Assembly: GCF_048287415.1 (NCBI RefSeq)
Contig: NZ_JBLWEN010000001.1
Span: forward strand, 88,790 to 152,789
Direction of reading: 5' to 3'
Length of the DNA stretch: 64,000 nt
DNA from: Candidatus Electronema sp. JM
GTDB lineage: Bacteria > Desulfobacterota > Desulfobulbia > Desulfobulbales > Desulfobulbaceae
The translations under genes and the position numbers were made by a program. Below the pieces are notes generated by a model that was not told the DNA's origin, did not search any database, and saw only the letters and a list, made by a program, of their open reading frames with translations. Shown piece by piece: positions 32,001-63,776 of the stretch (the first letter of the stretch is position 1; the number at the start of each line of letters is the position of its first letter).

Positions 32001-32022
32001 GGGGCGAAAAATTTTTCGCCCC
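32001..32022. repeat. Copy 1 of a 22-bp perfect-palindrome hairpin element, GGGGCGAAAAATTTTTCGCCCC
   Basis: An exact palindrome is seen with flank tgta...tgctgc. The same element recurs at 60482 and, degenerate and inverted, at about 63749. Confidence 0.85.
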
Positions 32023-48997: not shown

Positions 48998-49056
48998 GAC
49001 ATGGCTTTAAATTGAAAAAGCAATGTTATAGATCACAACTTGGATTGAGTGTATTG
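48998..49056. promoter_or_regulatory. Conserved ~55-bp boundary element, copy B
   Basis: See copy A. It overlaps the last approximately 10 codons of the histidine kinase ORF (...KDNTLNPSCDL*). Confidence 0.6.
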
Positions 49057-50525
49057 TCCTTCATTTTTTTCACCGGCAGGCTGATGAAAAACGCCGCGCC
49101 CTGCCCCTGCGCACTCTCAACCGTGATTGCGCCACCGTGCTTGGTGATGATCTCGCGGGTCACAGCCAAACCAAGGCCGCTGCCCTTGCCAACTTCCTTG
49201 GTGGTGTAGAAAGGATCAAAGATTTTCTCCATATCCACTGCCGCGATGCCGGGGCCGTTGTCGCGCACTTCAATACGGAGCAGCCCTTCCTCTGCCGCGA
49301 TGCCTGCTTTGAGCAAAATCTGCCCTGCGCCGTCCAAGGCTTGCGCTGCATTGCGGAGAATATTGATCAGAGCCTGCTGGAGCTGCCGCTTGTCAGCGCA
49401 GAAGAGGCCGTCCTGCGTGATTTCAGTGCGGAACTCAAGCGTGTCCGGGATGTCGCCTTTGACCAATTTGCAGGTCTCGCGGATGAACGCGCCCAGCTCC
49501 AGCTCTTTGGGCCGCACTTCGCGGTCATGGGCGAACTCCAGCAGAGAGCGGATGATGTTCCGCGCCCGGTCTGTTTCCTCGTCTATCTGCGCGGCCATTT
49601 CAAGCAGAAAGTCGCTGTCCGGCAGGTTTGCCTCCTGCAATTCTTCCAGCAGTATCTGCGCCGAGGTGCTGGCGTTGGAAAGCGGGTTGTTCAGCTCATG
49701 CGCCACGCCCGCCACCAAAGTGCCGACCGCCGCCATCTTTTCGCTCTGGACGAGCTGCTTCTCGCGCTTGTCTAAAATCTCCATCATGTGACAAATCGCC
49801 TTGCTCACCGCCTGGATTTCCACCGGATCAGCAGCATCTTCCCAGCAGGTGAAATTGCCTGCGGCGATGCTGTGGGTGTAATCCACAATATGCTGAAGCG
49901 GCTGCACAATCAAATTGCGCATCTGCCTGCCAAGAAGCAGGGCCATGCCAGCCACAGCAGCGACAAGGAGCAGTCCGGCAACTTTCAGGCGGGCCAGCTT
50001 CCGGTCTATCGCCTCGCGGATGTTCCGGTTCATCGCCCCAGACAGATTCACCAGCTCCTTGCCTGCGCTGCGGATGGCCTCCTCATTCAGATGACGGCGA
50101 TTCGTCTGAAAGAAGGCGAATTCCGCATCCATGAGCTGGCGATAGCGGAACAGCTCGTCCTGCAAGCGCACCTTAGCCTTGCGGTCTTCCCCAACCTGCT
50201 TTTCCCGAAGCAGCATGAAGGCATTCTCAATCTGCGCTTGGTTCTCAAGGAACTCCTGCTGCTCGCGGTACAGGAGCCAGTTCTTCTCATAACGGCGGAT
50301 TTCCAGCACGGTGTCAGTCAGGGCGGCGACAGACTCCAAGGTGGAGACGCGCTGGCGGATGTCGGCAAGGCCCACAGCCACCATGAGGGTGATCGTGGCG
50401 GCCAGCAGCACCATCAGGCAGTAGCCAAGCTGGATGCGCCGGACAAGGCTGTTCGGTAGACGGCTGATAATGGATTGCATAATGCAATAGTGCTCTCTGA
50501 AATGCAACAGCCCTTGCAGGCCCAA
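49026..50525 (-). CDS. Sensor histidine kinase (two TM segments, HAMP, HisKA, HATPase_c)
   Basis: The H-box is VAHELNNPLSNASTSAQIL and the G-boxes are DNGPGIAAVDMEKIFDPFYTTK...GSGLGLAV. It is a paralog of the kinase at 58536. Confidence 0.85.
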   Translation of the reverse strand: MGLQGLLHFREHYCIMQSIISRLPNSLVRRIQLGYCLMVLLAATITLMVAVGLADIRQRVSTLESVAALTDTVLEIRRYEKNWLLYREQQEFLENQAQIENAFMLLREKQVGEDRKAKVRLQDELFRYRQLMDAEFAFFQTNRRHLNEEAIRSAGKELVNLSGAMNRNIREAIDRKLARLKVAGLLLVAAVAGMALLLGRQMRNLIVQPLQHIVDYTHSIAAGNFTCWEDAADPVEIQAVSKAICHMMEILDKREKQLVQSEKMAAVGTLVAGVAHELNNPLSNASTSAQILLEELQEANLPDSDFLLEMAAQIDEETDRARNIIRSLLEFAHDREVRPKELELGAFIRETCKLVKGDIPDTLEFRTEITQDGLFCADKRQLQQALINILRNAAQALDGAGQILLKAGIAAEEGLLRIEVRDNGPGIAAVDMEKIFDPFYTTKEVGKGSGLGLAVTREIITKHGGAITVESAQGQGAAFFISLPVKKMKDNTLNPSCDL

Positions 50526-50912: not shown

Positions 50913-51341
50913 AGTCAGCAGTCAAAGGAATAAAAATGCAGCTCAACAGCCTGCTCCGCCTGCTGGCAAAGACTTTTGCCGAGGAGGGCGGGCATAAATG
51001 AAGGGGAGCAAAGCACGTGCTGCAGCTGCTCCGCCAGCAAAAGAAAGCAGCCTGCCACTCTCGCCGCCGCCATCTGACACCAGCGCGGCTCAACTCGGCA
51101 CTCTTCTGTTTTTTTCTCGCAGCATCCTAAAAATACGGCTGTTTCAGCCTGCCGTGTTATTTCAGCGTTCTTCCTGCTGAAATAATGTGTCAGGCTGCTG
51201 TTTTCCTCTTTGCTTCCGCCGCAGAATTGAGTAAATAACTCCCGCTGAAGCTGCGTGCGCAGCACTGTCTGCCAGTCTGCGCCGCAACCTGCTCTGCCTG
51301 CAAACAAATTGAACCACTTCAACATAAAGGAGAGACCAACG

Positions 51342-52265
51342 ATGTACATGTACCTGCCTGTCGCCCTCACCAGCGTGAACTTCCTGCTGGTGTCGGGCAT
51401 CGGATTCACGGTCGGAATGCTGTCCGGCCTTTTCGGCGTGGGAGGTGGCTGGCTGATGACCCCCCTGCTGATGATGATCGGCATTCCGCCCACCATTGCT
51501 GCGGGCACGGACGCGAACCAGATTGTGGCCGCCTCCACCTCCGGCATGTACACCCACTGGCGGCTGGGCAATGTGGACTACAAGATGGGCATCTGTCTGC
51601 TCATCGGCAGCTTCCTCGGCGGCGCTTTCGGCGTGCAGGTCATCAAAGTGCTCACCGCCACTGGCGGCGCGGACTTCCTGATCAAGATCACCTACGTGCT
51701 CATGCTGGGCATAGTCGGCTCCTTCATGTTTGTCGAGAGCCTGACAGCGATGAAGAAGGCCAAGAGCGGCGAGGCCAAGCCTGCCGCGCCAAAGGACAAT
51801 GCCAAGAAGAGCCTGATCATGCGTCTGCCCTTGCAGACCACCTTTGAGAAGTCCGGCGTGTCCTTCTCCGCGCTGGTGCCGGTGGGCCTTGGCGCCTTTG
51901 TCGGCCTGCTGGCGGCGATCATGGGCGTGGGCGGCGGCTTCCTCATGGTGCCGGTGATGATCTACATGCTGCGCATTCCGATGCACGTGGTGGTCGGCAC
52001 CAGCCTGTTCCAGATCCTCTTCACCTGCATTGAGGTGACCTTCCTGCAAGCCTACTACAACCGGACTGTTGACTTCCTCCTCGCCCTGCTCCTCCTGATC
52101 GGCTCGGTCTTCGGCGCACAGATCGGAGCGAAGCTGGGCCGCAAGCTGCACGGCGACCAGCTCAAGATCCTCCTTTCCGTCATCGTCCTGTCCGTGACCG
52201 TGAAGCTGGTTTTCGACTTGATACTCCAGCCTGCCAACCTGCTTTCCTACGCTGGAGGACATTGA
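51342..52265 (+). CDS. TauE/SafE (DUF81, TSUP) family anion exporter
   Basis: It has two internal repeats with GxGGG motifs (LFGVGGGWLMTPLLMMIGIPP ; IMGVGGGFLMVPVMIYMLRIP). The start is at MYMYLPV, preceded by AAGGAG. Confidence 0.8.
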   Translation: MYMYLPVALTSVNFLLVSGIGFTVGMLSGLFGVGGGWLMTPLLMMIGIPPTIAAGTDANQIVAASTSGMYTHWRLGNVDYKMGICLLIGSFLGGAFGVQVIKVLTATGGADFLIKITYVLMLGIVGSFMFVESLTAMKKAKSGEAKPAAPKDNAKKSLIMRLPLQTTFEKSGVSFSALVPVGLGAFVGLLAAIMGVGGGFLMVPVMIYMLRIPMHVVVGTSLFQILFTCIEVTFLQAYYNRTVDFLLALLLLIGSVFGAQIGAKLGRKLHGDQLKILLSVIVLSVTVKLVFDLILQPANLLSYAGGH

Positions 52266-53029
52266 TCATGCGCATGATGAAAACAGCCCTGCTCGCAGCC
52301 GCCGCGCTCGCGCTCTCCGTTCATGCCGCCGCTGCGGCAAGCATTCAGGCCGCTCCGTCGGACATCAAAATATCCCTGTTCTACCACGGCGCGGCTGTGG
52401 AGGTCAAAGGACAGGCTGCGCCGGGCGAGGACGTGCTGGTCAAAGTCACGCCCTCCGAGCAGCATGAGTTCCACCTCAAATACAAGGGCAAGGCCGCAGG
52501 CATCTTCTGGATGAAGCTCGGCACCTTGGTGTTTGAGAACCTGCCCAGCACCTATCTGCTCGCCTCCTCCGGCCCGGTTGACAAGGTGCTGGACGCGGAG
52601 GCGCGGACTGCCGAGAACGCGGGCTTGGACGCTTTGCAGAAGAAGGCGGTGATCAAGGCGGAGAAAGGCGCGATGCCTGCTGGCGACTGGTTCGGCCAGT
52701 TCCTTGATTTCAAGAAGAAGGAGAAGCTCTACAATGTTGAGGAAGGCACGGTGAAGGTCGGCGCGGACGGCAGCTACAGCTACACGCTGGCCTGGCCGTT
52801 CCAGGCTCCTCCGGGCAGCTACAAGATTGAGGCTGTCACCGCCAAAAACGGCAAGGTGACAGGCCACGCCGAGACAGCGCTCACGGTTGAGCTGACCGGC
52901 ATTGTCGCCCTGCTGGCTAAGATGTCCGCTGACAACCGCACGCTGTACGGCATCATCTCCATTGTCGTGGCTGTCGCCGCCGGTTTCGGCGTGGGCATGA
53001 TCTTCAAGAAGGGCGGCGGCTCGCACTGA
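52262..53029 (+). CDS. TIGR02186-like periplasmic/TM protein, the usual DUF81 partner
   Basis: It has a signal peptide and then a soluble domain. The C-terminal TM is IISIVVAVAAGFGVGMIF. It overlaps the TauE stop by 4 nt. Confidence 0.5.
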   Translation: MIMRMMKTALLAAAALALSVHAAAAASIQAAPSDIKISLFYHGAAVEVKGQAAPGEDVLVKVTPSEQHEFHLKYKGKAAGIFWMKLGTLVFENLPSTYLLASSGPVDKVLDAEARTAENAGLDALQKKAVIKAEKGAMPAGDWFGQFLDFKKKEKLYNVEEGTVKVGADGSYSYTLAWPFQAPPGSYKIEAVTAKNGKVTGHAETALTVELTGIVALLAKMSADNRTLYGIISIVVAVAAGFGVGMIFKKGGGSH

Positions 53030-53208: not shown

Positions 53209-53293
53209 TTGCACTATAGTGGAAGCAGCCATTGCACTACAGTGGAAACCTCGGTTGCACCATAGTGCAAACATCGGTTGCACTATAGTGCAA
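53209..53293. promoter_or_regulatory. Array of four 16-bp palindromic sites (TTGCAC-NATA-GTGCAA) at exact 23-bp spacing, about 120 bp upstream of the ROCO start
   Basis: Units start at 53209, 53232, 53255 and 53278. Units 3 and 4 are perfect palindromes. Units 1 and 2 have the half-site variant GTGGAA. Confidence 0.8.
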
Positions 53294-53412
53294 CCGCAAG
53301 CCACAGCCTGCTGGCCGCTTGGCTGCGAGGAAGCTGCAAGTATCCGAGCCATGCTCGAAGGCATTGCAGGGGCACCCTTAGCACAACCACACACCCACGG
53401 AGGAACGAGGCG

Positions 53413-55434
53413 ATGAGCAAAGAAGAAGCCTTGCAGCTAATTAAAGAGGCTGCGGAGACAGGGGCAACGTGGCTTAATCTCTTTAATCAAGGATTGAGTG
53501 AAATACCACCTGAGGTGTTTGCGCTTAAGCAGCTCACCTATCTTGGTCTCACTCATAATCGTCTCGCCTTTCTACCGCCAGAACTGTTTGAGATGAAGCA
53601 GCTCACCCAGCTTGAACTCAGCGACAATTGCCTTATCTCATTACCGCCTGAGGTGTTTACACTCAAACAATTAACCTTGCTTAACCTCATTCGCAACCAC
53701 CTTGTCACCCTACCGCCAGAGATTAATCAACTACCCAAGTTAAAAGATATTTGGTCTTTCGATAACCCCCTCGTCTCTCCTCCTTACGAAATAGCTATCA
53801 AAGGCATCTCAGCCATACGCGAATACTTCGCTGAAATGGAAGGCGAGAGCAAGGAGCTGGCCGAGGTCAAGATCATCCTTGTGGGCGAAGGCGCATCGGG
53901 CAAGACCTCATTAGTCAGGCGGCTGCGCGGGGAGCAGTTCGACCCGCACGAGCCAATGACGCACGGCATCAGCATCAACAAATGGCGGCCCGCAAGCGCA
54001 GGCCAGCTGCCCTGCTGCAATGTCTGGGACTTCGGCGGCCAAGAGATCATGCACGCCACGCACCAGTTTTTCCTTTCCCGCCGCAGCCTGTACGTCCTTG
54101 TCCTCGACAACCGGCGCGACGAGCGGCCCGAATACTGGCTGCGCTACATCGAAACCTTCGGCGGCGATTCGCCGGTCTTAGTGGTGCTCAACAAGCAGGA
54201 CATCAATCCCGGCTTTGATCTCAACCGGCCTTTTCTGCACGAGAAATACCCGTTCATCAAGGGCTTTTGGCCGCTTTCCTGCCACAGCGGACAGGGCATG
54301 GCGGCATTCACGCAAGCCTTGCACGAGGAGTTAGACAAGGTGCCCTTGAGCAAGAACCGCTGACCCGCAACCTGGTTCCGGGCAAAGGAAAAGCTGGAGC
54401 AGCTGCACGAGCCGCGCATCAACTACGAACGCTTCGAGCAAATCTGCCTTGAAGCCGGGGTGAAGGGCGCGACCACGCAGCAGGTCTTGGTGGATTTCCT
54501 CAACGATCTGGGCACGGTCATTCACTTTGATCAATTTGAGCTGAACGATCATCACGTCCTTAATCCGCAATGGGTGACAGAGGCGGTGTACAAGATCATC
54601 AACGCGCCGTCGGTGGCACATGCCAAGGGCCTGCTGCACGTGGATGCGCTGGCGGACATCTTAGCAAAGAAGAAGGACAGCGAGCATCGTTATTATCCCG
54701 CTGATCACCATTACATCATCGAGCTGATGAAGAAGTTCGAGCTGTGCTATCAAGTGGGTGAGAGCGAGGTGCTGATACCGCAGCTTTTGGCCGTGCCTGA
54801 GCCTTCCTTCACCTTTTATTACAGCAATGCCCTGCGTTTTGTTCTCCATTATGAGGACTTCCTGCCGCCGTCTGTCATGCCCCGCTTTATTGTCAATCGG
54901 CATAAAGAGATTCAAGGCGAACTGCGCTGGCGCAGCGGCGTTGTCCTGAAGAATGCGCAGCTTGATGCCAGCGCGGTGGTGCGGGCGGATGACGAGGCCC
55001 GCCGCATTCATATCGCTGTGACCGGCAAGGAGCGCAAAATCTTCCTCGCCCTGATTTGGCTCACTCTGCGGGAAATCAATGCGGGCTTTGAAGGCTTGAA
55101 GGTCAGCGAGCGCGTGCCCATGCCGGATGAGCCGGAACGCAGCGTGGATTACGAGACACTTCTCAGCTATGCGGAACAGGGCTTGGAAAAGATTATCCCC
55201 GAAGGCACGAAAAAGGCATATAGTGTGAAAGAGCTGCTGGAACGGGTGCATTTCGCCAATGAAAGCGAGGGCAGGCAGATGCTGGCTTTGGCTGAGGGTG
55301 AACGGAAAGGCGGAGCAGTGAACAAAACAGGCGCCGCATTGAACACCATGTTCAAGCTGGAGCCTTCAGTTTTTGGCGTGGGAATCAACCTCAATGCGAT
55401 GTTTGACGCTCTGCTGAAATGGCAGAGGAAGTAA
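53413..55434 (+). pseudogene. ROCO-type signalling GTPase (LRR - Roc/Ras-like GTPase - COR) interrupted by a single in-frame TGA at 54361..54363
   Basis: There are LRRs at 53413 onwards. The Roc P-loop is ILVGEGASGKTSL, with DFGGQE and NKQD motifs. After the stop, the same frame continues (PATWFRAKEKLEQLHEPRINYERFEQICLEAG...) into a COR-like approximately 320 aa. The tool ORFs 53278..54363 and 54460..55434 are in the same frame. Confidence 0.8.
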
Positions 55435-55545
55435 GCCCGCAACCGCTTGGGCCTGAGAATCCTAAGTGCTTGGGATTTTGGCCGAGGCGTTGCTTTGAAT
55501 AACTCGCGCAGCTTATTGGCTGCTCTGAAGATAAAGAAATCTGCA

Positions 55546-55785
55546 ATGAGATGCGTATGCTGCGGAGGGCCGCTCAAAAGCGGCACAGTGACATTCAGCT
55601 ATGAGGATGAGGAAGCATACATCTTTGTTGAGCATGTTCCGGCTGATGTATGCAGTCATTGCGGCGAGAAAGTGTATTCCCCGGCTGTTGCGGACATGCT
55701 GCTGGATATCGCTCAAAGGAAGAGCGAGCCAGTCAAGATGCTCCATATCCCTGTTTATGATTTTGCTCAAACGAAGAGAACATGA
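55546..55785 (+). CDS. YgiT-type zinc-finger protein (MqsA N-terminal-domain-like, no HTH)
   Basis: It has two CxxC pairs (CVCCGG...CSHCGE) spaced as in the YgiT/MqsA zinc ribbon. Its stop overlaps the next start (ATGA). Confidence 0.55.
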   Translation: MRCVCCGGPLKSGTVTFSYEDEEAYIFVEHVPADVCSHCGEKVYSPAVADMLLDIAQRKSEPVKMLHIPVYDFAQTKRT

Positions 55786-57314
55786 CTCCACCTGTCGGCC
55801 TGGCCAAGCACGAGCAGCTGCAAGCGCTTGCAGCTCAATACGGCTGCCCTGTCCTGGAATACAGCGAGAAGGTCAGCGTGCCGTTCCTCATCCTCATTCA
55901 GCTCAATGCGGAGCAGCTGCGGCAGGAAGGCTGGCTGCCGCTACACGTCACGGAAGAGAAGGTGAAAATCCTCACGCACCGCGCCCCGGACGAGGTCGCC
56001 GCCGCTGTCCGCCAGACGCTGGGCGAGGTGGAGCTTGATTTTGTCCTCACTGTGCCGCATGACTTTATCCGGGTCTTTGAGCACAGCTGCGATCTCAACC
56101 CCAGATTCCCCATGCCCGCAGGCCGCACGCCGCTGGCCAGAGTGCGCACTTACTTCGCAGGCCGCCGCTCGCTTTTCGCGCACTACCGCACCTTGATGGC
56201 CAAAAGCCGCACCGATCTGGCCACCGTCCGCACCGCGCTGTCCTTCATGACCATCGCCCTGCTCGGCGTGCGGGTCTTCGGCCTGGGCACGCTGGCAGTG
56301 CTGGAGCTGCCGCTCTTTCTCCTCGGCGCATGGGTCTGCGTTGACAGCATCGTCAGCTACCTGCCTGCCCGCCGGGTGAAAAGCCGTCTGCCCGCCTGCT
56401 CCGGCACCACGCCGACCAACGGCACCACAGTCTTGGCGGCCTCGAACGCGGAGGATTTCCCGCTCTTCCGCCGCCTGCCTGAGACACCGGGCGCAGCCGC
56501 CTTGCGGGCAGGCTGGACCAAGCTCACCCCGCTGATGCGCCGCCGCTTTCTCGCCAGCGACCGCACCGACATGGCCGAGGAGCGGACAACGCTGGCCTGC
56601 CTCCGCACCAAAATGGCGAAGGCGCGCACCGGCCTGGCTTTTGTCCGCACCGGCCTGGCCTTTTTCTCCCTCGGCTTCGGCCTGATGCGGGCCTTTCCCG
56701 AAGTCATTTATTGGCACATCTTAGATGTGAGTTTGATGGCCGCCGGAATCCTCATGGCACTGGAAGGCTTCTTCTGGTATAAAAAAGGTCGGCCTGCGGG
56801 CGAGGAAGGGCAGGCTTCGGTGGAGAAAGCGAACAAGGCGGGCACGATCTGGGATTTCTTCTTCCCGCATGTCGCGGCCTGCCCCAGCCCCAATCCCCTG
56901 CAAACCCCGCCAGTGCGCCGCTCGCACGCGCCGGGCCTCTGGGCGACCACAGGTCTAGCTTTGGAGCGCACCGTCTTAGCTGACCGCCGCAATGTCATGG
57001 CGCGGCTACGGACGGTCATGGCCCGCTCGCGCACGGGCATGGCCTTCATCCGCACCGGCCTGAGCATCCTGCTGATCGGTGTCACCTTCTTGGTCTCCTT
57101 CCCGGATGCGGGCCTGCTCTGGCAGCTGCTCGACTGGTGCCTGATCCTCGGCGGCTCCGTCTTAGTTGCGGACGGCTTTTACTGGACGGTGCCTGCGGAG
57201 CGGAAACGGACGGAGTTCCCCTACTGCTTCGCGGATTTGGAAATAGCTCTGGCGGATTACGGCATTCCCTCCCGCCATTGGCGGAAGACGGTGTTTTATC
57301 GTGCAAGCAAGTAA
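55782..57314 (+). CDS. T2SS-E N-terminal (GspE_N/MshEN-like) domain fused to three DUF202 (YidH-like) membrane repeats
   Basis: The N-terminal approximately 110 aa resemble the GspE N-domain (AAQYGCPVLEYSEKVSVPFLILIQLNAEQLRQEGWLPLHVTEEKVKILTHRAPDEVAAAVRQTLG). Three blocks follow, each [RT.LA..RT.[LM]A..RT.LA..RTGL + hydrophobic helix]. Confidence 0.65.
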   Translation: MTPPVGLAKHEQLQALAAQYGCPVLEYSEKVSVPFLILIQLNAEQLRQEGWLPLHVTEEKVKILTHRAPDEVAAAVRQTLGEVELDFVLTVPHDFIRVFEHSCDLNPRFPMPAGRTPLARVRTYFAGRRSLFAHYRTLMAKSRTDLATVRTALSFMTIALLGVRVFGLGTLAVLELPLFLLGAWVCVDSIVSYLPARRVKSRLPACSGTTPTNGTTVLAASNAEDFPLFRRLPETPGAAALRAGWTKLTPLMRRRFLASDRTDMAEERTTLACLRTKMAKARTGLAFVRTGLAFFSLGFGLMRAFPEVIYWHILDVSLMAAGILMALEGFFWYKKGRPAGEEGQASVEKANKAGTIWDFFFPHVAACPSPNPLQTPPVRRSHAPGLWATTGLALERTVLADRRNVMARLRTVMARSRTGMAFIRTGLSILLIGVTFLVSFPDAGLLWQLLDWCLILGGSVLVADGFYWTVPAERKRTEFPYCFADLEIALADYGIPSRHWRKTVFYRASK

Positions 57315-58539
57315 CGAGACGCTCCTGACGGCCTTGGCCCGGAAGGGCGTTCTGCCGGCAGAGACGCTGGCGGAGATTGAGCAGGCCGCCACGCTGCGCG
57401 GGCTGGCGCCTGCGACGCTGCTGGTCTATGAGTACAATGTGCCGCGCGTCACGCTGCTGGAGGCCTTGGCTGAGATTCACGCCTGCCAGCCGGTGGAGTA
57501 TGATGAGCGGCTGCCCATCCCGCCGGACTTCCTGCCCAAGCTCTCCGGTCCGGCCTTGCTGAAGGAAGGCTGGTTCCCCATCTTCTTGGAGGAGGACGGC
57601 ACTGTGACGGTCGCCGCCTCCAACCCTGCCGCGCCGGGCCTGTGCGCTTCGGTGCGGCAGACGCTCGGATGCAGCAATGTGGTCTGCATGGTCACCCTGC
57701 CGGAGGACGTGCAGTGGTTCATTCAGGATTATCTGCACGCGCCGCCCGGCCTGCTTATCGGCACTGAGCGCACTGGCCTGGCCTATTGGCGCAACACCAT
57801 GGCCCAGTGGCGGACGCTGCTCGCCTGCTGCCGCACCGACATGGCCAAGGCGCGCACAGCACTGGCCTTTGGCCGCTTTGGCCTCTCGCTGATCACGGTC
57901 GCCATGACCTTGCTGCGCCTGACTCCGCCGCGCCTGCCCAAGCCTGCGGCCTTCCTCCTCCTGGCTTTGGGCCTGCTCTGCAACGGACTGGGCGTGGCGG
58001 TGTATCTGCGGATCCGCCGCTCGCAGCTACGCCCGCCCGGCAGCCAGACGATCATGGAAGTGACTGCGGCCACCATCTCGTTCTTGGAGCAGTACCATTT
58101 CCCGGAAGAGCTGAAGGGCAGCCTGCCGCCGCCGCAGACCGGCGCATCCATGCTCGCCCGCCTGGGAGAGCTGCTCGCCGACTACTCGACCATCCTTTTC
58201 CCGGCTCCGCCCAGCCGCGAGCGCACGCATCTGGCCCGTGAGCGCAACGTGCTGGCGGCCCAGCGCACGGTGGCTGCTTGTTACCGCACCATCTATGCCC
58301 GCGCCCGCACTGGGCTGGCCTTCACCCGCACTGGCGTGAGCTTCTTCAGCTTTGGCGTGGGCCTGATCCTCTATTTCGGCCTCGGCCTGAACACCATCTT
58401 TGATGCGCTGCTGATTGCCGCAGGCCTGCTGATGATCACCGACGGCCTGCTCTGGTATCTGCCGGTGCGCAAAGAGCAGGCCGAGCTGCCGCGCTCGCGC
58501 AGCGGTGCCCTGGCTGGCTGGGAGGATGACGACGAATGA
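57301..58539 (+). CDS. GspE_N/MshEN-like domain fused to two DUF202 membrane repeats (paralog of the upstream gene)
   Basis: The N-terminal region (LLTALARKGVLPAETLAEIEQAATLRGLAPATLLVYEYNVPRVTLLEALAEIH...WFPIFLEEDGTVTVAASNP) is followed by ERTGLAYWRNTMAQWRTLLACCRTDMAKARTALAF and RERTHLARERNVLAAQRTVAACYRTIYARARTGLAFTRTG. It has a GTG start that overlaps the upstream gene by 14 nt. Its stop overlaps the kinase ATG. Confidence 0.6.
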   Translation: MQASNETLLTALARKGVLPAETLAEIEQAATLRGLAPATLLVYEYNVPRVTLLEALAEIHACQPVEYDERLPIPPDFLPKLSGPALLKEGWFPIFLEEDGTVTVAASNPAAPGLCASVRQTLGCSNVVCMVTLPEDVQWFIQDYLHAPPGLLIGTERTGLAYWRNTMAQWRTLLACCRTDMAKARTALAFGRFGLSLITVAMTLLRLTPPRLPKPAAFLLLALGLLCNGLGVAVYLRIRRSQLRPPGSQTIMEVTAATISFLEQYHFPEELKGSLPPPQTGASMLARLGELLADYSTILFPAPPSRERTHLARERNVLAAQRTVAACYRTIYARARTGLAFTRTGVSFFSFGVGLILYFGLGLNTIFDALLIAAGLLMITDGLLWYLPVRKEQAELPRSRSGALAGWEDDDE

Positions 58540-59942
58540 AGATCCTGCACCGCATCTGCCTGTCTGACGCGATCAACATCTGCCTTTTGGTGCTGATCGG
58601 CCTCTTTGCGATCCACTCCTTTGACGAGCTGCTGGCCAAGTTCCGCTTCACCACGATTGCTGACGGCCTCAACGCGGCCTTTTTGGAAATGCGCATCGCC
58701 GAGAAGAACTATCTTCTTTACGGCGACAAGGAGGCCCTGAACTCCATTTCCACCCGCATTGCTGAGACTGTCCCGGTCTTGGAGAAAGAGCGGGAGAACA
58801 TCGAGCAGGTCACGGGCGGCAGCGACTACAAGTACCTTGTCCAGCTGCTGGCCGAGTACCGCAGCGATGTCCTTGCCCTGCGAGACGGGCATGGCGCGGA
58901 CAAGCGGGTGCGGGAGTCCGGCCACAGCCTGCGCGCCTTCTCCGAACATCTCACCGCCATGGAGCGGGACAAGGTGGCGCAGATCATCGAGCGCTCGAAA
59001 GCCGTGCTCCGTCATTCCTTCTGGGCGGTGATCTTCTTCGCCTTTGTCTTCACCCAGTGGAATGCGCGGAGCATCCGCCGTTCCCTTCGGCAGGTGGAGC
59101 AGCTGACACGCTCGATTGCCAAGGGCGAGTTCTCCCTTATCCAAGAGAAGCCAGCGGCAGATGAGCTGGGTTCCATCGTCCAGGCGATCAGCACGATGTC
59201 GGACGAACTGAACCGGCGCGAAGAGGAGATTGTCCGCTCCAAGCGCCTGGCTTCCATTGGTGTGTTGGTGGCCGGTGTGGCCCATGAGCTGAACAATCCG
59301 CTCAACAACATCTCCATGATTGCGCAGACCTTCACAGAGCTGCACGACAAGCTGAACAGCGGGCAGCAGCTGGAGTTCATGGCCCAGATTGATGAGGAGA
59401 CCGAACGCCTGCGGGTGACAATCAAGAACCTGCTTGATTTCTCCAAGCCCAAGGAGAAGGAAATGGAGCCGCGCTGCCTGAACGAGGTGGCGCAGAAATG
59501 CATTGGCTTAGTGCAGAACATGCTGACCATCGGCAACATCCGCACCAAGCTGGCCTTGGCCGAAAACCTGCCCCAGCTCTGCTTGGACGAGCACCAGATT
59601 CAGCAGGTGCTGGTGAACATGCTGATCAACGCCATTCAGGCCATGCCGCCCGGCGGCGTGCTCAGTGTCAGCACCCGCCTGCTGCCTGAGCAGCACATGG
59701 CGGAAATAGAAATCAGCGACACCGGCAAGGGCATTCCGCCGGAGCTGATCAACCACATCTTCGACCCCTTCTTCACGACTAAAGACGAGGGCGGCACCGG
59801 CCTTGGTCTCTGGGTCAGCTACGGAATCATCAAAAACCACGGCGGGGAGATTCACGTCAAGAGCACAGTGAACAAGGGCACGACCTTCACTGTCACCCTG
59901 CCGACAGACTTGGAGCGATGTCAGCTATGCACAGCATCATGA
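58536..59942 (+). CDS. Sensor histidine kinase (two TM segments, HAMP, HisKA, HATPase_c)
   Basis: The H-box is VAHELNNPLNNISMIAQTF. The G-boxes are DTGKGIPPELINHIFDPFFTTK and GGTGLGLWV. Confidence 0.85.
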   Translation: MKILHRICLSDAINICLLVLIGLFAIHSFDELLAKFRFTTIADGLNAAFLEMRIAEKNYLLYGDKEALNSISTRIAETVPVLEKERENIEQVTGGSDYKYLVQLLAEYRSDVLALRDGHGADKRVRESGHSLRAFSEHLTAMERDKVAQIIERSKAVLRHSFWAVIFFAFVFTQWNARSIRRSLRQVEQLTRSIAKGEFSLIQEKPAADELGSIVQAISTMSDELNRREEEIVRSKRLASIGVLVAGVAHELNNPLNNISMIAQTFTELHDKLNSGQQLEFMAQIDEETERLRVTIKNLLDFSKPKEKEMEPRCLNEVAQKCIGLVQNMLTIGNIRTKLALAENLPQLCLDEHQIQQVLVNMLINAIQAMPPGGVLSVSTRLLPEQHMAEIEISDTGKGIPPELINHIFDPFFTTKDEGGTGLGLWVSYGIIKNHGGEIHVKSTVNKGTTFTVTLPTDLERCQLCTAS

Positions 59943-60307
59943 TTATTGACGACGAACGGATAGTGGGCGACATGGCCAAACTGTCCCTCAGTCAGGATGG
60001 CTACGATGTGGAAACGTTTCTCGACGGCGAGAGCGCGCTGAGGCGGCTCAAGGAGAAGAGCTTCGCTGTCGTGGTCACGGATTTGAAGATGAAAGGCGTG
60101 GACGGGCTGGAAGTCTTGCGCAACGTCAAGCAGCTTTATCCGGCAACAGCGGTGATCATGATCACTGCCTTCGCCAATCTTGATGTGGCCATCGAGGCTC
60201 TGCGCGACGATGTTTTTGATTTCTTCCCCAAGCCGGTGAAGATCAAAGACCTGAAAGCGTCGGTCAAGCGGGCAGTGGAAAAGGGAAACATGCCGCAGGC
60301 AGGCTGA
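59918..60307 (+). CDS. Single-domain response-regulator receiver (CheY-like)
   Basis: Key motifs are IMIIDDE...VVVTDLKMKGVDG...ITAF...K. It overlaps the kinase 3' end. Confidence 0.8.
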   Translation: MSAMHSIMIIDDERIVGDMAKLSLSQDGYDVETFLDGESALRRLKEKSFAVVVTDLKMKGVDGLEVLRNVKQLYPATAVIMITAFANLDVAIEALRDDVFDFFPKPVKIKDLKASVKRAVEKGNMPQAG

Positions 60308-60481
60308 GTCTGTGGCTGCTGTCGGCGATGGAGTTCTTCCTGGCAGCTTATGCTCTGGCAGAGGACACCATTATGCTTGACAAGAGGACAACGTTATCCT
60401 CTTGCGGAGCATAACATTATGCTCTTTGGCTGCATAGTGCTATGCAGCGGCAGCAGCAAATATGGTCGTGGCAATGGTGTA

Positions 60482-60503
60482 GGGGCGAAAAATTTTTCGC
60501 CCC
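60482..60503. repeat. Copy 2 of the GGGGCGAAAAATTTTTCGCCCC palindrome
   Basis: It is identical to copy 1 and has similar flanks (gtgta...tgcagc). Confidence 0.85.
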
Positions 60504-60542
60504 TGCAGCATTGCGGAAAACATGCAAAGGAGGAACGAGGCG

Positions 60543-60674
60543 ATGAACAAAGAAGAAGCCTTGCGGCGGATTAAACACGTGGAGGAGACAGGAGCAACGA
60601 GGCTTGATCTGAGCTTTCAAAGATTGACTGAACTGCCGCCTGAACTCTTTCAAATAAAAAATGAACCAACTTGA
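60543..60674 (+). pseudogene. 43-codon stub of a ROCO/LRR-family N-terminus with a conserved RBS region
   Basis: MNKEEALRRIKHVEETGATRLDLSFQRLTELPPELFQ... parallels MSKEEALQLIKEAAETGATWLNLFNQGLSEIPPEVFA... at 53413. The upstream GGAGGAACGAGGCGATGA is shared with the ROCO gene. Confidence 0.6.
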
Positions 60675-63261
60675 TAGTTCTGCCGACAAAGGAGCAACTC
60701 TCCGCAGCCTGTGGACTGCCTTGCTCAAGCTGCTGCCGGGCCGCAGCGCGCCGCCAGTCAGCCCGCGTCTGGTCTTTGAACGCTTTCAGAAGGTGCTGGC
60801 CAGCAACAATCAGGCTTTGGAGATCATTGCCGATCTGGGCGAGAAGCTGGGCGGCGACTACCTCTTTGACATGCGCTATGTTGAGTCCTCGGTTGAGGAG
60901 CTGATTGCGGCGGTGCACAGCTCAGTGCTGGCGGTGAATGAGCTGTGCGGCGACCGTCACGCCAAGCTGCATCAGGTGCATGAGCGTCTGAGCGAGGACT
61001 TGCGCCTGACCCTGGCTGGCCGTGAAGACCGCGAGGGGCCGCTGATCTTCACGCTGGATGAGATCCGCCCGCGCAACTGGGCCTTGGTCGGCGGCAAGGC
61101 CGCGCACTTGGCGGTGATGCGGCATGATCCGCAGCTGCGCGTGCCGGACGGCTTTGTCATCACCGCCCGCGCCTACAACGATCTGATTGACCATAACGGC
61201 CTGCGGCAGCAGCTCACTGCTTTTGAGGAGCTGATGTCCGCCACTGAGCCGGATGCCGACCTGCTGGAGGAGCAGCGCAGCTTGATTGAACAGGCCGTGC
61301 TCGCTGCCGCGCCGCCGCCGGGCCTGTTGGACGCGCTTGCCCAAGCAGCAGGCCGTCTGCCGCAGACCAGCAAGCCGCTCTTCTTGGCGGTGCGCAGCTC
61401 GGCGCAGGAGGAAGACATGGACTTCTCCTTTGCCGGCCAGTTCACGTCGGTGCTCAACGTGCCTGCCCAGCCGGATGCGCTCTTTGCTGCTGCCCGCGAG
61501 GTGATGGCCAGTCTGTTCTGCGCCGGGGCTGTGTCGTACCGCCGCCGCGTCTTCCCGGATGAAGGCAAGATGGCTATTGCCGTGGTCTGCCAGCGGATGG
61601 TGGATTCCCGCAGCAGCGGCATCGTCTTTTCGGTGGACACCATGCAGCTCGCTCACGACACGATGGTGGTGGTGGCCGCGTGGGGCCAAGGCGAGGCGGT
61701 GGTGGAAGGCGGCACAGCCACTGACACCTTCCAGCTCCACAAGGGGCCGCCGCTGCGCATCGCTGCCCGGCAGGTGGCGGACAAAGAGCAAGGCCTCTTT
61801 GCCGGAGCCGAGAGCGGCCTGACCAGCCGGGCCATCGCCAAGGAGCTGCGCACTGCGTCCTGTCTCTCAGACGATGAGCTGCTCCAGCTTGGCAGCACAG
61901 CCCTGCACTTGGAAACGCTCTTCAAGCGGCCGCAGGACATCGAATGGGCCTTTGACAGCAGCGGCCAGCTCTACATTCTCCAAGCCCGGCCCTTGGTGCT
62001 CAACACCCCGGCGCGGGAAAAGGCCCTGCCAGTCCGTGTGGAGCAGCACGAGGTCATCTGCGCCGGACAAGGCAAAGTGGCCCAGCAAGGCATTGCCGCC
62101 GGGCCAGTGCATTTGGTCAATTTTGCTGAGGAGACCGGCGAGTTCACGGAAGGCTCAGTGCTGGTCACGCACCACGATTCCTCCCGCCTCGTCACCTACA
62201 TCCAGCGGGCCGCCGGTGTCATCACCGAGACCGGCACGCCGGTCAGCCACATGGCCACCATCTGCCGCGAGTTCCAAGTGCCCTGCTTGGTCAATGTGGG
62301 CAGCATCCTCGGCAAGGTGCGCGAAGGCGAGCTGATCACCGTGGACGCGGAAGACCGCCGCATCTATCGAGGCTTAGTTGACGAGCTGCTGGTCTATCGC
62401 GCCACCTCCTGCATCAACCTGATGTCCAGCCGCGAGTTCCGCCTGCTCCGCCGCATTCTCAAGAAGGTCTCTGAGCTGCATCTGGTGGATCCGATGATGC
62501 AGGACTTCAGCATAGACGGCTGCCGCACCTATCACGACATTCTCCGCTTCTCGCATGAGTCAGCAGTGCAGGAGATGGTCAACCTTGGCCGCGATGAGCG
62601 GCGGCTGATCAAGGGCAGCATCGTCCGGCCGATGAAGCTGCCCATTCCCACCGGCATTCTGGTGATTGACATCGGCGGCGGCCTTGCCTCTGACGCGCCT
62701 GAGCGCGATGTGCCGTTTCAGGCCATTGCTTCCGTGCCCTTCCGTGCTGTGCTGCAAGGGATGCTCTTCCCGGAGATATGGCACAACAATCCTATGCCGG
62801 TAGGCATCCGCGACCTGATGAACAGCATGTTCAGTCCGATCCGCGAAGAGGCGGCGGAGCAGTACAGCGGCCACAACATCGCCATCATCGGCGGAAATTA
62901 TGTCAATCTTTGCTTTCGTCTGGGCTATCATTATAATATTATAGACGCGCACTGCGGCGAGGCGGAGCAGAACAACCATCTTTACTACCGCTTTCTGGGC
63001 GGCGTGACGGACATGACCAAACGCTCGCGCAGGGCGGCGATGATCGCGCAGATACTCAAGGAGTTCGAGTTCAATGTCCAGACCAAAGGCGACCTGGTCA
63101 CAGCCCGGCTCTCGCGCCTGCCGCAGCGGGAGGCCGAGCGCGCGCTGGACATCCTTGGCAGACTGGTGGGCTACACCCGCCAGCTGGATGTGCGCATGGA
63201 GAGCGACAATGATCCGGGCAGATATGCCGAAGCGTTCCTGAACGGGGAATACAGGGTTTGA
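60661..63261 (+). CDS. PEP-synthase/PPDK-like protein. It has PPDK_N ATP-grasp and PEP-utilizing phosphohistidine domains. The approximately 290-aa C-terminal region does not resemble the canonical PEP-binding barrel.
   Basis: Motifs include NWALVGGKAAHLAVM, FVITARAY, LFLAVRSSAQEEDMDFSFAGQFTSVLNV, AVVCQRMVDSRSSGIVFSVD, and the His domain TGTPVSHMATICREFQVPCLVNVG...GELITVDAEDRRIY. Confidence 0.8.
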   Translation: MNQLDSSADKGATLRSLWTALLKLLPGRSAPPVSPRLVFERFQKVLASNNQALEIIADLGEKLGGDYLFDMRYVESSVEELIAAVHSSVLAVNELCGDRHAKLHQVHERLSEDLRLTLAGREDREGPLIFTLDEIRPRNWALVGGKAAHLAVMRHDPQLRVPDGFVITARAYNDLIDHNGLRQQLTAFEELMSATEPDADLLEEQRSLIEQAVLAAAPPPGLLDALAQAAGRLPQTSKPLFLAVRSSAQEEDMDFSFAGQFTSVLNVPAQPDALFAAAREVMASLFCAGAVSYRRRVFPDEGKMAIAVVCQRMVDSRSSGIVFSVDTMQLAHDTMVVVAAWGQGEAVVEGGTATDTFQLHKGPPLRIAARQVADKEQGLFAGAESGLTSRAIAKELRTASCLSDDELLQLGSTALHLETLFKRPQDIEWAFDSSGQLYILQARPLVLNTPAREKALPVRVEQHEVICAGQGKVAQQGIAAGPVHLVNFAEETGEFTEGSVLVTHHDSSRLVTYIQRAAGVITETGTPVSHMATICREFQVPCLVNVGSILGKVREGELITVDAEDRRIYRGLVDELLVYRATSCINLMSSREFRLLRRILKKVSELHLVDPMMQDFSIDGCRTYHDILRFSHESAVQEMVNLGRDERRLIKGSIVRPMKLPIPTGILVIDIGGGLASDAPERDVPFQAIASVPFRAVLQGMLFPEIWHNNPMPVGIRDLMNSMFSPIREEAAEQYSGHNIAIIGGNYVNLCFRLGYHYNIIDAHCGEAEQNNHLYYRFLGGVTDMTKRSRRAAMIAQILKEFEFNVQTKGDLVTARLSRLPQREAERALDILGRLVGYTRQLDVRMESDNDPGRYAEAFLNGEYRV

Positions 63262-63273
63262 CAAGGAGACGGA

Positions 63274-63717
63274 ATGCAGCTTACAACCACGGCCAGCGAC
63301 AGCTCTGACCTGCTCATTATTGATGACGAGCCGATCATCGGCAAGCGGCTGCAACACACCTTCAGCAAAATTGGACTGAACGCGCAGGCCTTCACCAGCC
63401 CGCAGGCGGCGATGGAGCGTATCAGCAGTGCGCCGGTCCATGTGGTGATCACCGATTTCCGCATGAAGGGCATGGACGGCCTGGAGGTCTTCCGCCAGGT
63501 CAAAAAATTGAGTCCGCGCAGCAAGGTGATCATCATCAGCGGCTACGCCAGCCCGGAGACGGTGGACATCGCTTTTCAGGAAGGGGTGTTCGATTTTCTC
63601 GTCAAGCCGTTCCGCTTGGACGAACTGAAGGAGGCGGTGCGTCGGGCGCTGGAGGAGATCAGCAGGGAGCGGAAAGCAGAAGCGTCAGCCGCGCCATCTC
63701 CAGTGTATGGCATGTAG
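63274..63717 (+). CDS. Single-domain response-regulator receiver
   Basis: Key motifs are LLIIDDE...VVITDFRMKGMDG...IISGY...K. It starts 12 nt after the PPDK-like stop. Confidence 0.8.
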   Translation: MQLTTTASDSSDLLIIDDEPIIGKRLQHTFSKIGLNAQAFTSPQAAMERISSAPVHVVITDFRMKGMDGLEVFRQVKKLSPRSKVIIISGYASPETVDIAFQEGVFDFLVKPFRLDELKEAVRRALEEISRERKAEASAAPSPVYGM

Positions 63718-63748
63718 AATTGTCCCCTGCGTTGAGTGGCTACGTGAT

Positions 63749-63776
63749 GCAGCAGGGGCGAAAAATTTTTCACACC
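63749..63776. repeat. Degenerate, inverted copy 3 of the palindromic hairpin element (GCAGCAGGGGCGAAAAATTTTTCACACC)
   Basis: Its reverse complement matches ggtgt-GAAAAATTTTTCGCCCC-tgctgc of copies 1 and 2, with 6 nt of the left arm deleted. Confidence 0.6.

Follow-up and report, generated by a model that had tools for sequence, protein, structure and literature searches.

A conserved pair of DUF202 membrane proteins linked to a histidine kinase, receivers and PpsA-like enzymes in a cable bacterium: a candidate polyanion conduit

The VTC proteins are embedded in the membrane by a DUF202 domain (PF02656). In yeast, three copies of Vtc1 assemble with one Vtc3 and one Vtc4 into a pentameric complex of DUF202 subunits, in which the five first transmembrane helices (TM1) line a polyphosphate pore; its vestibule carries two basic rings, formed by K24 and R31 of Vtc1 seven residues apart, and reversal of these charges lowers the polyphosphate content. 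Here we describe a locus of the freshwater cable bacterium Candidatus Electronema sp. JM (Desulfobulbaceae), contained in a 64,000-nucleotide stretch of contig NZ_JBLWEN010000001.1 (hereafter the window), that encodes two DUF202 proteins, denoted A and B, together with a membrane histidine kinase (HK), two stand-alone receivers (RR1 and RR2) and a PpsA-like enzyme. The core of the locus (55782-60307 and 60661-63717) represents, in Electronema, a conserved system for membrane signalling and phosphotransfer that has apparently not been described before. Tentatively, and with somewhat less than even confidence, we read this system as a heteromeric polyanion conduit that is controlled by a kinase and a receiver and is coupled to phosphohistidine enzymes.

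Like VTC, the locus has five DUF202 membrane units in total, carries basic residues at i, i+7 spacing where TM1 begins on the cytoplasmic side, at the conserved 'ERT' motif, and couples its membrane part to cytoplasmic enzymes that use ATP. It differs from VTC in that two polypeptides share the five units (3+2), in having two membrane helices per unit whereas VTC subunits have three, and in its longer basic ladder of 5-7 arginines per unit. Moreover, the locus lacks a TTM polymerase and an SPX domain; A and B are instead accompanied by a two-component pair and by PpsA-like phosphohistidine enzymes.

The remaining parts can likewise be set against described relatives. In MshE, PilB/PilF and GspE/XpsE an ATPase follows the N-terminal domain, whereas in A and B the corresponding head is fused to a membrane domain; the 24-residue cyclic di-GMP (c-di-GMP) motifs of MshE-type domains are absent from both, and A keeps just the C-terminal alpha/beta subdomain. 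The PpsA-like enzymes share an ATP-grasp and a swivelling phosphohistidine domain with a catalytic histidine with phosphoenolpyruvate (PEP) synthase, pyruvate phosphate dikinase (PPDK) and rifampin phosphotransferase, but the TIM barrel of PEP synthase and PPDK is replaced by an unmatched domain of ~290 residues, a helical region of ~125 residues is added at the N-terminus, and up to four paralogs occur per cluster, each beside receivers and kinases. The HAMP-HisKA-HATPase kinase with its H-box and the receivers with all phospho-acceptor residues are those of a classical two-component system. In contrast to classical CheY-like systems, RR1 and RR2, which lack an output domain, are kept far more tightly than the kinases, and their likely targets are A/B and the PpsA-like enzymes rather than DNA or the flagellar motor. 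The parts can be assigned to known domain families, but their assembly corresponds to no prokaryotic system described so far.

Membrane units and cytoplasmic heads of A and B

An initial annotation, made from the DNA sequence, had described A and B as paralogs that join an MshEN-like domain to two or three DUF202 repeats. This architecture is real. Against the Pfam DUF202 model (cut-off 23.4 bits), A scores 47.6 and B 45.2 bits as whole proteins, and against the MshEN model (PF05157, cut-off 23.1 bits) B scores 33.4 bits and A, just under the cut-off, 22.6 bits. The DUF202 units number exactly three in A and two in B; taken singly, they score 19.6, 30.2, 27.4, 38.4 and 26.4 bits, four of the five lying above the cut-off.

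Each unit carries a run of 5-7 arginines at exact i, i+7 spacing, three runs being found in A and two in B (residues 157-192 and 308-343), which amounts to 30 arginines overall. In the AlphaFold2 (AF2) models, a unit consists of a cytoplasmic helix of ~40 residues that bears the arginine ladder and continues unbroken into TM1 of a short-looped transmembrane hairpin; the confidence of the prediction is high for these continuous helices. The helix pairs span residues 115-166/172-202, 250-304/309-352 and 384-439/445-478 of A (mean predicted local distance difference test score, pLDDT, 86.4; predicted TM-score, pTM, 0.84) and residues 156-206/214-242 and 303-359/365-394 of B (pLDDT 77.9 overall, above 90 in the head), and the periplasmic hairpin loops comprise ~4-12 residues. 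A hydropathy scan recovered the two membrane helices of every unit except the second of A, where it flagged one. When the five unit types were aligned without gaps (29 sequences), arginine was invariant at five heptad positions, and the heptads followed the pattern R-T-x-[LM]-A-x-[WY]. Because the Pfam DUF202 model starts only at the last two of these heptads, the ladder extends the ERTxLAWxRT signature of the family towards the N-terminus. In a profile alignment of the unit with Vtc1 by hhalign, the arginine of 'ART' falls on R31, in the expected register; this match is statistically weak (E = 0.025), and the numbering of the Vtc1 sequence used fits K24, R31 and M42 of the VTC paper.

The head of B adopts the complete MshEN/GSPII fold. 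A Foldseek search with the B model returned the GSPII-A domain of PilF as the closest structure, with c-di-GMP-bound MshE and the GSPII-B domain of PilF also among the top matches, and a profile of the family matches PilB N-terminal domains in the PDB (E = 7e-4). In the AF2 model of A the head is reduced to the alpha/beta subdomain, the motif-bearing four-helix subdomain being missing.

The complete fold of B, the MshE and PilF GSPII-B matches and the Pfam score of B are what speaks for a gating of the membrane device by c-di-GMP or another cyclic nucleotide bound to the heads, as the initial annotation had envisaged. Binding of c-di-GMP by MshEN domains involves two tandem copies of the 24-residue motif RLGxx(L/V/I)2xxG(L/V/I)2xxxxLxxxLxxQ, for which a relaxed search form is also available (Wang et al. 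2016, PMC5013675). In a motif scan, neither the strict nor the relaxed form was present in A, in B or in any of 19 relatives of B. At best, windows agree with 6-9 of the 11 constrained positions, and the best windows of B itself lack the arginine and glycine of RLG as well as the terminal glutamine. Furthermore, A has no four-helix subdomain, and the title of a report on the closest fold match, PilF GSPII-A, speaks of reconstructing c-di-GMP binding in this domain (PMC12002112), which implies that the domain does not bind the nucleotide natively. The heads of A and B have an MshEN/GSPII fold but do not, by their sequence, look like c-di-GMP receptors, and we consider nucleotide gating very improbable.

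Some homologs of A and B are named 'GspE N-terminal domain-containing protein' in databases, and such a name could suggest fragments or pseudogenes of an ordinary ATPase gene of a type II secretion system (T2SS) or type IV pilus. However, no T2SSE/PilB ATPase domain was found in A, B or any neighbour (Pfam; annotated neighbourhoods), and both proteins are full-length, with length and sequence preserved in hundreds of genomes and with 50-60% identity across two phyla. The fragment explanation is refuted by these findings and keeps practically no probability, and the paralogy of A and B proposed in the initial annotation holds.

A conserved neighbourhood of enzymes, kinase and receivers

When a single genome of each GTDB species was scanned with a sequence pattern, a relative of B was present in at least 239 species-representative genomes. 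The best 80 of these comprise 48 Nitrospirota (Thermodesulfovibrionales, Sulfobium and Dissulfurispiraceae), the rest being Desulfobulbales or unclassified 'delta' metagenome-assembled genomes. More than 1200 homologs of B were retrieved, the best 120 of which are all ~400 residues long and 54-83% identical, and the search with A gave the same picture. In both proteins dozens of residues are invariant; identities among the loci are mostly 45-60% and reach 82% within Electronema.

Conservation of gene order was assessed in 81 non-redundant loci of the two phyla by tblastn with the window proteins, the loci with enough flanking sequence serving as denominator in each case. A lies directly upstream of B in every testable locus (77 of 77), and the kinase follows B in 67 of 72. 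RR1 is present in 63 of 68 loci and a PpsA-like gene in 54 of 61. TauE and Alph_Pro_TM stand upstream of A in 26 of 61 loci, mostly of Nitrospirota but also in L006 and L040, and belong to the conserved neighbourhood. The reading frames of A and B overlap by 8-14 nt in annotated contigs across phyla, and the gene order was also seen in annotated contigs of Thiovibrio, Hydrosulfovibrio and Nitrospirota. The link of A and B to the kinase/receiver pair and to PpsA-like proteins, first noticed in the initial annotation, is thus strongly conserved. The designation of the whole as an accessory locus, which lumped in the ROCO gene, the YgiT gene and the palindrome array discussed below, does not agree with the wide distribution of the core.

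A fuller cluster, with the order P1-RR2-HK2-P2-P3-A-B-HK-RR1-P4 (P1 to P4 being PpsA-like paralogs), occurs in Thiovibrio, Hydrosulfovibrio and Desulfurivibrionaceae loci; in Thiovibrio and Hydrosulfovibrio an annotated Metallophos gene lies 3' of it. A Metallophos phosphoesterase of ~218-227 residues adjoins PpsA-like genes in L001 (15662-16318), in L002 (15617-16273) and in the contig of the distant relative P0302 (see below), and tblastn with the L001 protein (E<=1e-6) found no homolog in the window. Locus L086 has the order TauE-AlphTM-P1-RR2-A-B-HK-RR1-P4. The window enzyme is the ortholog of P1, with which it shares 57-60% identity, compared with 35-40% for P4, the usual downstream paralog, and the adjacency of P1 and RR2 recurs in related loci. 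Where the initial annotation saw a PPDK-like protein flanked by receivers, the comparison of gene orders shows two separate modules, A-B-HK-RR1 and P1-RR2, that were joined in the window by rearrangement.

The PpsA-like enzyme of the window contains a PPDK_N ATP-grasp domain (PF01326, 250 bits, residues 142-460) and a PEP-utilizers swivel domain (PF00391, 62 bits, residues 495-564) with the catalytic His530 in TPVSHMATICRE; the swivel histidine is also present in P2, P3 and P4 of L001. The PpsA match extends over residues 127-575 (NCBIfam, 312 bits; PDB entry 8a8e, E = 5e-55), and all PDB matches are confined to residues 124-577. As the alignment with the PpsA model stops at residue 575, the PEP/pyruvate TIM barrel is not part of the match. 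For the C-terminal ~290 residues neither Pfam (E<=0.01) nor a profile search of the PDB returned a match, and a homolog search with this C-domain yielded fragments and proteins that share the architecture of the enzyme, but no fusion that was informative. The C-domain is kept end to end in all four PpsA-like paralogs, among which ~37 residues are invariant. Since many of these are His, Asp, Arg or Asn, the sequence points to the C-domain as a probable catalytic substrate site.

Pfam models matched the HAMP, HisKA and HATPase_c domains of the kinase, which has its H-box histidine at residue 250. The phospho-acceptor residues are intact in both receivers (D11/D12, D55, T83 and K105 in RR1; D17/D18, D61, S89 and K111 in RR2). 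RR1 orthologs from Desulfobulbales to Nitrospirota (L001-L084) are 122-129 residues long and 62-86% identical, mostly 70-86%, whereas identities for the cluster kinase are lower, at 38-74% overall and 38-58% outside Electronema. Judged from these identities, the constraint on RR1 is unusually strong for a stand-alone receiver. A second membrane histidine kinase is encoded at 49026-50525 on the minus strand, just 5' of and opposite to TauE; it is 33% identical to the cluster kinase and resembles HK2 of the fuller clusters.

The pairing of enzymes with receivers raises the alternative of an unorthodox phosphorelay, in which the swivel phosphohistidine of a PpsA-like enzyme would phosphorylate the receiver aspartate, bypassing or beside the kinase, and the receiver would then act on A and B. 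The swivel domain of phosphotransferase system (PTS) enzyme I hands phosphate to another protein, and the PpsA-like swivel domain is homologous to it. In addition, there are tight receiver/PpsA-like pairs without a dedicated kinase, namely P1-RR2, separated by 12 nt in the window, and in L085 a fusion protein and a second pair that are described below. The invariant polar residues of the C-domain, however, suit a small-molecule site rather than a docking surface, canonical kinases adjoin both receivers in the full clusters, and we know of no report of a transfer from a swivel histidine to a receiver aspartate. Such a relay is compatible with parts of the conduit model, but as a replacement for it we regard it as unlikely.

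A tentative polyanion conduit and the evidence that bears on it

In the conduit model, A and B would assemble 1:1 into a hetero-oligomer in which the five arginine-ladder/TM1 helices enclose an electropositive conduit for phosphorylated or otherwise polyanionic species. This conduit would mirror the five-DUF202 polyphosphate channel of yeast VTC with its K/R rings at i, i+7 of TM1. At the cytoplasmic mouth, the PpsA-like enzymes would make or modify the polyanion via ATP and phosphohistidine. The kinase would phosphorylate the receiver, which in turn would switch enzyme or conduit by direct contact, and the MshEN-like heads would act as docking sites.

Proteins with a single unit provide independent support for this model. 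An exhaustive profile search gave few full-length clusters at 50% identity and many shorter, unit-only proteins, several of which consist of a single DUF202 hairpin after long runs of (RTxLAxx) heptads. Tandem RTxLAxx runs are seen in P0302 (about twenty), P0305, P0309, P0319 and P0337; such a run amounts to a long coiled-coil-like stalk with arginine at position 'a', apparently of an undescribed kind. P0304 combines a DUF202 ladder with a receiver domain in one fusion protein; its gene is directly followed by a PpsA-like gene that encodes the same C-domain (L085, 8001-11688), with two Usp genes, a Kup K+ transporter gene and a second receiver plus PpsA-like pair alongside. On the contig of P0302 there are genes for PpsA-like, Metallophos, receiver, Alph_Pro_TM, TauE and HAMP-kinase proteins. 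Outside the A/B subfamily, too, a DUF202 ladder is therefore found in partnership with a receiver and a PpsA-like enzyme.

Several observations weigh against the conduit model. The AF2 models are those of the monomers of A and of B, and they have two long membrane helices per unit, compared with the three of VTC subunits. A search of PDB sequences with the five-unit profile recovered no VTC chain, its single TetR match being due to chance, and VTC chains were likewise missing from every fold or profile search, so that no structural likeness to the solved VTC chains was found. The annotated neighbourhoods contain neither a TTM polyphosphate polymerase nor an SPX domain, and no obvious substrate-pathway gene is conserved nearby. 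Finally, the closed genome of Ca. Electronema halotolerans has A-B-HK-RR1 only, with no adjacent PpsA-like gene; the link to the enzyme is therefore not obligatory in cis.

Part of this evidence would also suit a scaffold or co-sensor, that is, A and B as a membrane-anchored platform that modulates the kinase and does not conduct, with the ladders serving as signalling stalks or as binders of anionic lipid head groups and the heads recruiting the receiver and the PpsA-like enzymes. The short periplasmic loops leave A and B little surface on the outside, and none of the genes linked to transport is strictly conserved. In secretion and pilus ATPases, GSPII/MshEN domains serve as modules for protein docking, the PilB-PilZ complex being among the fold matches, and a receiver is fused to the single-unit relative P0304. 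The contrast between the identities of RR1 and of the kinase further suggests that RR1 has several partners. On the other hand, arginine at every 'a' position of the heptads, invariant in five unit types, fits an ordinary coiled-coil signalling stalk poorly; the sole DUF202 assembly of known structure is a channel; and a defined, closed assembly is favoured by the co-translation of A and B and by their exact unit count of 3+2. We consider a pure scaffold somewhat unlikely and retain the conduit as our tentative reading.

A more specific version of the conduit would be a VTC-like prokaryotic machine, in which the PpsA-like enzymes build or extend polyphosphate or another phosphoanhydride polymer via their phosphohistidine and pass it to a pseudo-pentameric A3B2-unit DUF202 channel, the 30 arginines guiding the chain through the membrane, with the kinase and receiver setting the rate and the Metallophos protein, a frequent neighbour, acting as polyphosphatase. 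The polyphosphate chemistry of PPK1 also proceeds via a phosphohistidine. We judge this elaboration to be quite improbable.

The initial annotation had not recognised the combination as described, and in the full-text literature we too found neither the architecture nor the cluster described; many subscription papers lie outside this search, and the result is absence of evidence only. Overall, its account of the architecture, the paralogy and the conserved gene links was borne out, and its accessory status, second-messenger gating and receiver-flanked PPDK-like protein were not. It had not noted the stop codon within the ROCO gene, the exact repeat counts of A and B, or TauE and Alph_Pro_TM as members of the conserved neighbourhood.

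Gene layout, lineage-specific additions and biological meaning

The locus lies on the plus strand between 51.2 and 63.8 kb of the window and runs from TauE through Alph_Pro_TM, the palindromes, ROCO, YgiT, A, B, HK, RR1, the hairpin, the leucine-rich repeat (LRR) stub and the PpsA-like gene to RR2 (Table 1). Protein B of the window matches a protein of Ca. Electronema sp. JM at 100% identity. The genes, overlaps, hairpin, stub and four-site array listed in the initial annotation were all recovered in place, including the coupling of the five genes at 55546..60307, which overlap by 4 nt (YgiT/A, ATGA), 14 nt (A/B), 4 nt (B/HK, ATGA) and 25 nt (HK/RR1).

Table 1. Features of the Electronema locus and their positions in the window (TM, transmembrane segment; HTH, helix-turn-helix)
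Feature	Position	Strand	Evidence
TauE/SafE-type (TSUP) anion permease	51255..52265	+	Pfam TauE, 168 bits
Alph_Pro_TM (PF09608) membrane protein	52262..53029	+	Pfam, 152 bits; 4-nt overlap with TauE
Four 16-bp palindromes, consensus TTGCACTATAGTGCAA, 5' of ROCO	53209..53293	.	Motif count
ROCO protein (LRR, Roc GTPase, COR-A, COR-B) with in-frame TGA	53410..55434	+	Pfam
YgiT-type zinc-ribbon protein, 79 residues, CxxC...CxxC, no HTH	55546..55785	+	TIGR03831
Protein A, 510 residues, truncated MshEN-like head and three DUF202 units	55782..57314	+	Pfam, AF2
Protein B, 412 residues, full MshEN/GSPII-fold head and two DUF202 units	57301..58539	+	Pfam, AF2, Foldseek
Membrane histidine kinase (TM, outside loop of ~125 residues, HAMP, HisKA, HATPase_c)	58536..59942	+	Pfam
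RR1, stand-alone receiver	59918..60307	+	Pfam, 92.9 bits
Palindromic hairpin around GGGGCGAAAAATTTTTCGCCCC	60471..60514	.	Arm complementarity
LRR stub, copy of ROCO 5' end	60527..60674	+	Alignment, tblastn; 3' end overlaps start of PpsA-like gene
PpsA/PPDK-like enzyme, 866 residues	60661..63261	+	Pfam
RR2, stand-alone receiver, partner of P1	63274..63717	+	Pfam, 91.4 bits

Four elements lie outside the machine, being lineage-specific additions and scars of rearrangement: the ROCO gene, the YgiT gene, the palindrome array and the LRR stub. The ROCO protein has the order LRR, Roc, COR-A and COR-B of bacterial ROCO proteins such as the Roco family of Chlorobium tepidum (Pfam scores for Roc, COR-A and COR-B of 100, 101 and 108 bits), but differs from them in being TGA-interrupted and in being an Electronema-specific insertion outside the conserved cluster. 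It is inserted between Alph_Pro_TM and A and, among the loci examined, occurs otherwise only in that of Electronema KV, likewise from freshwater. The TGA (54361-54363, codon 318) lies between Roc and COR-A, and the two open reading frames that it separates share one frame. Its context reads SKNR*PATW, compared with TKNQWPLSW in the intact ortholog of Electronema KV (L006), where the codon is TGG. The TGA is a nonsense mutation, and the gene a pseudogene, or else a sequencing error; as the ortholog encodes tryptophan, selenocysteine incorporation or programmed readthrough was set aside, a point mutation or sequencing error being the simpler explanation. An LRR protein of 351 residues, encoded at 1905-2960, is up to 52% identical to the LRR region of ROCO, and LRR/ROCO-type genes seem to have multiplied in the genome of Ca. 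Electronema sp. JM.

The YgiT-type finger, with CxxC pairs at residues 3 and 36, scores 42.4 bits against TIGR03831 (cut-off 20.2) and falls below the cut-offs of the MqsA families (28.4 versus 30 bits in Pfam; 16.8 versus 61.8 bits for TIGR03830). An MqsA-type antitoxin was rejected, the protein being a zinc ribbon only, with no C-terminal HTH domain. No tblastn match to it was found in 84 loci at E<=0.1, the weakest listed having E=0.68. A different small gene occupies its place between ROCO and A in Electronema KV (L006, 7888-8479); the interval between ROCO and A is therefore variable. The palindromic sites start at 53209, 53232, 53255 and 53278, with an exact period of 23 bp. Four sites were observed against 0.14 expected, none of 100 shuffles reached four, and the array has no copy in 85 related loci; it is presumed to be the operator for a regulator.

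The hairpin at 60471-60514 has arms of 22 nt that are 91% complementary. Its central 22-nt perfect palindrome, GGGGCGAAAAATTTTTCGCCCC, occurs three times in the window (32001-32022, 60482-60503 and 63755-63776; 0 expected), the third copy having two mismatches, and there is some similarity between the flanks of the copies. It looks like a dispersed element, either of the repetitive extragenic palindromic type or a terminator.

The LRR stub repeats the ribosome-binding site of ROCO, GGAGGAACGAGGCGATG, and the first ~40 codons; the copies lie at 53393-53520 and 60527-60655. Aligned windows of 221 nt have a mean column identity of 77%, with the similarity starting at the ribosome-binding site, and tblastn matched the stub to the N-terminus of the L006 ROCO protein. 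The two copies of the ROCO 5' end bracket the block ROCO-YgiT-A-B-HK-RR1. Compared with L086, P1-RR2 of the window is on the other side, after RR1, and P4 is lost. Because P1-RR2 now follows RR1 and ROCO-derived sequence is present at both junctions, the stub marks a rearrangement, and this arrangement suggests that recombination between ROCO paralogs may have produced it.

Given its conservation in cable bacteria, further Desulfobulbales and Nitrospirota of the sulfur cycle, the cluster probably meets a core physiological need, and its hosts are environmentally important organisms. The presence of the cluster in at least one cultured isolate, Hydrosulfovibrio ferrireducens CB1MN (RefSeq), and in Thiovibrio sp. 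JS02, where it lies on a chromosome-scale record of 3.68 Mb, makes the hypothesis open to testing. If true, the conduit model would provide the first working hypothesis for bacterial DUF202/YidH, a large family without an assigned function. It would also define a new PpsA/PPDK branch with a novel substrate domain, as well as a route by which output-less receivers control a membrane conduit. Should the polyphosphate version hold, it would link eukaryotic and bacterial polymer translocation.

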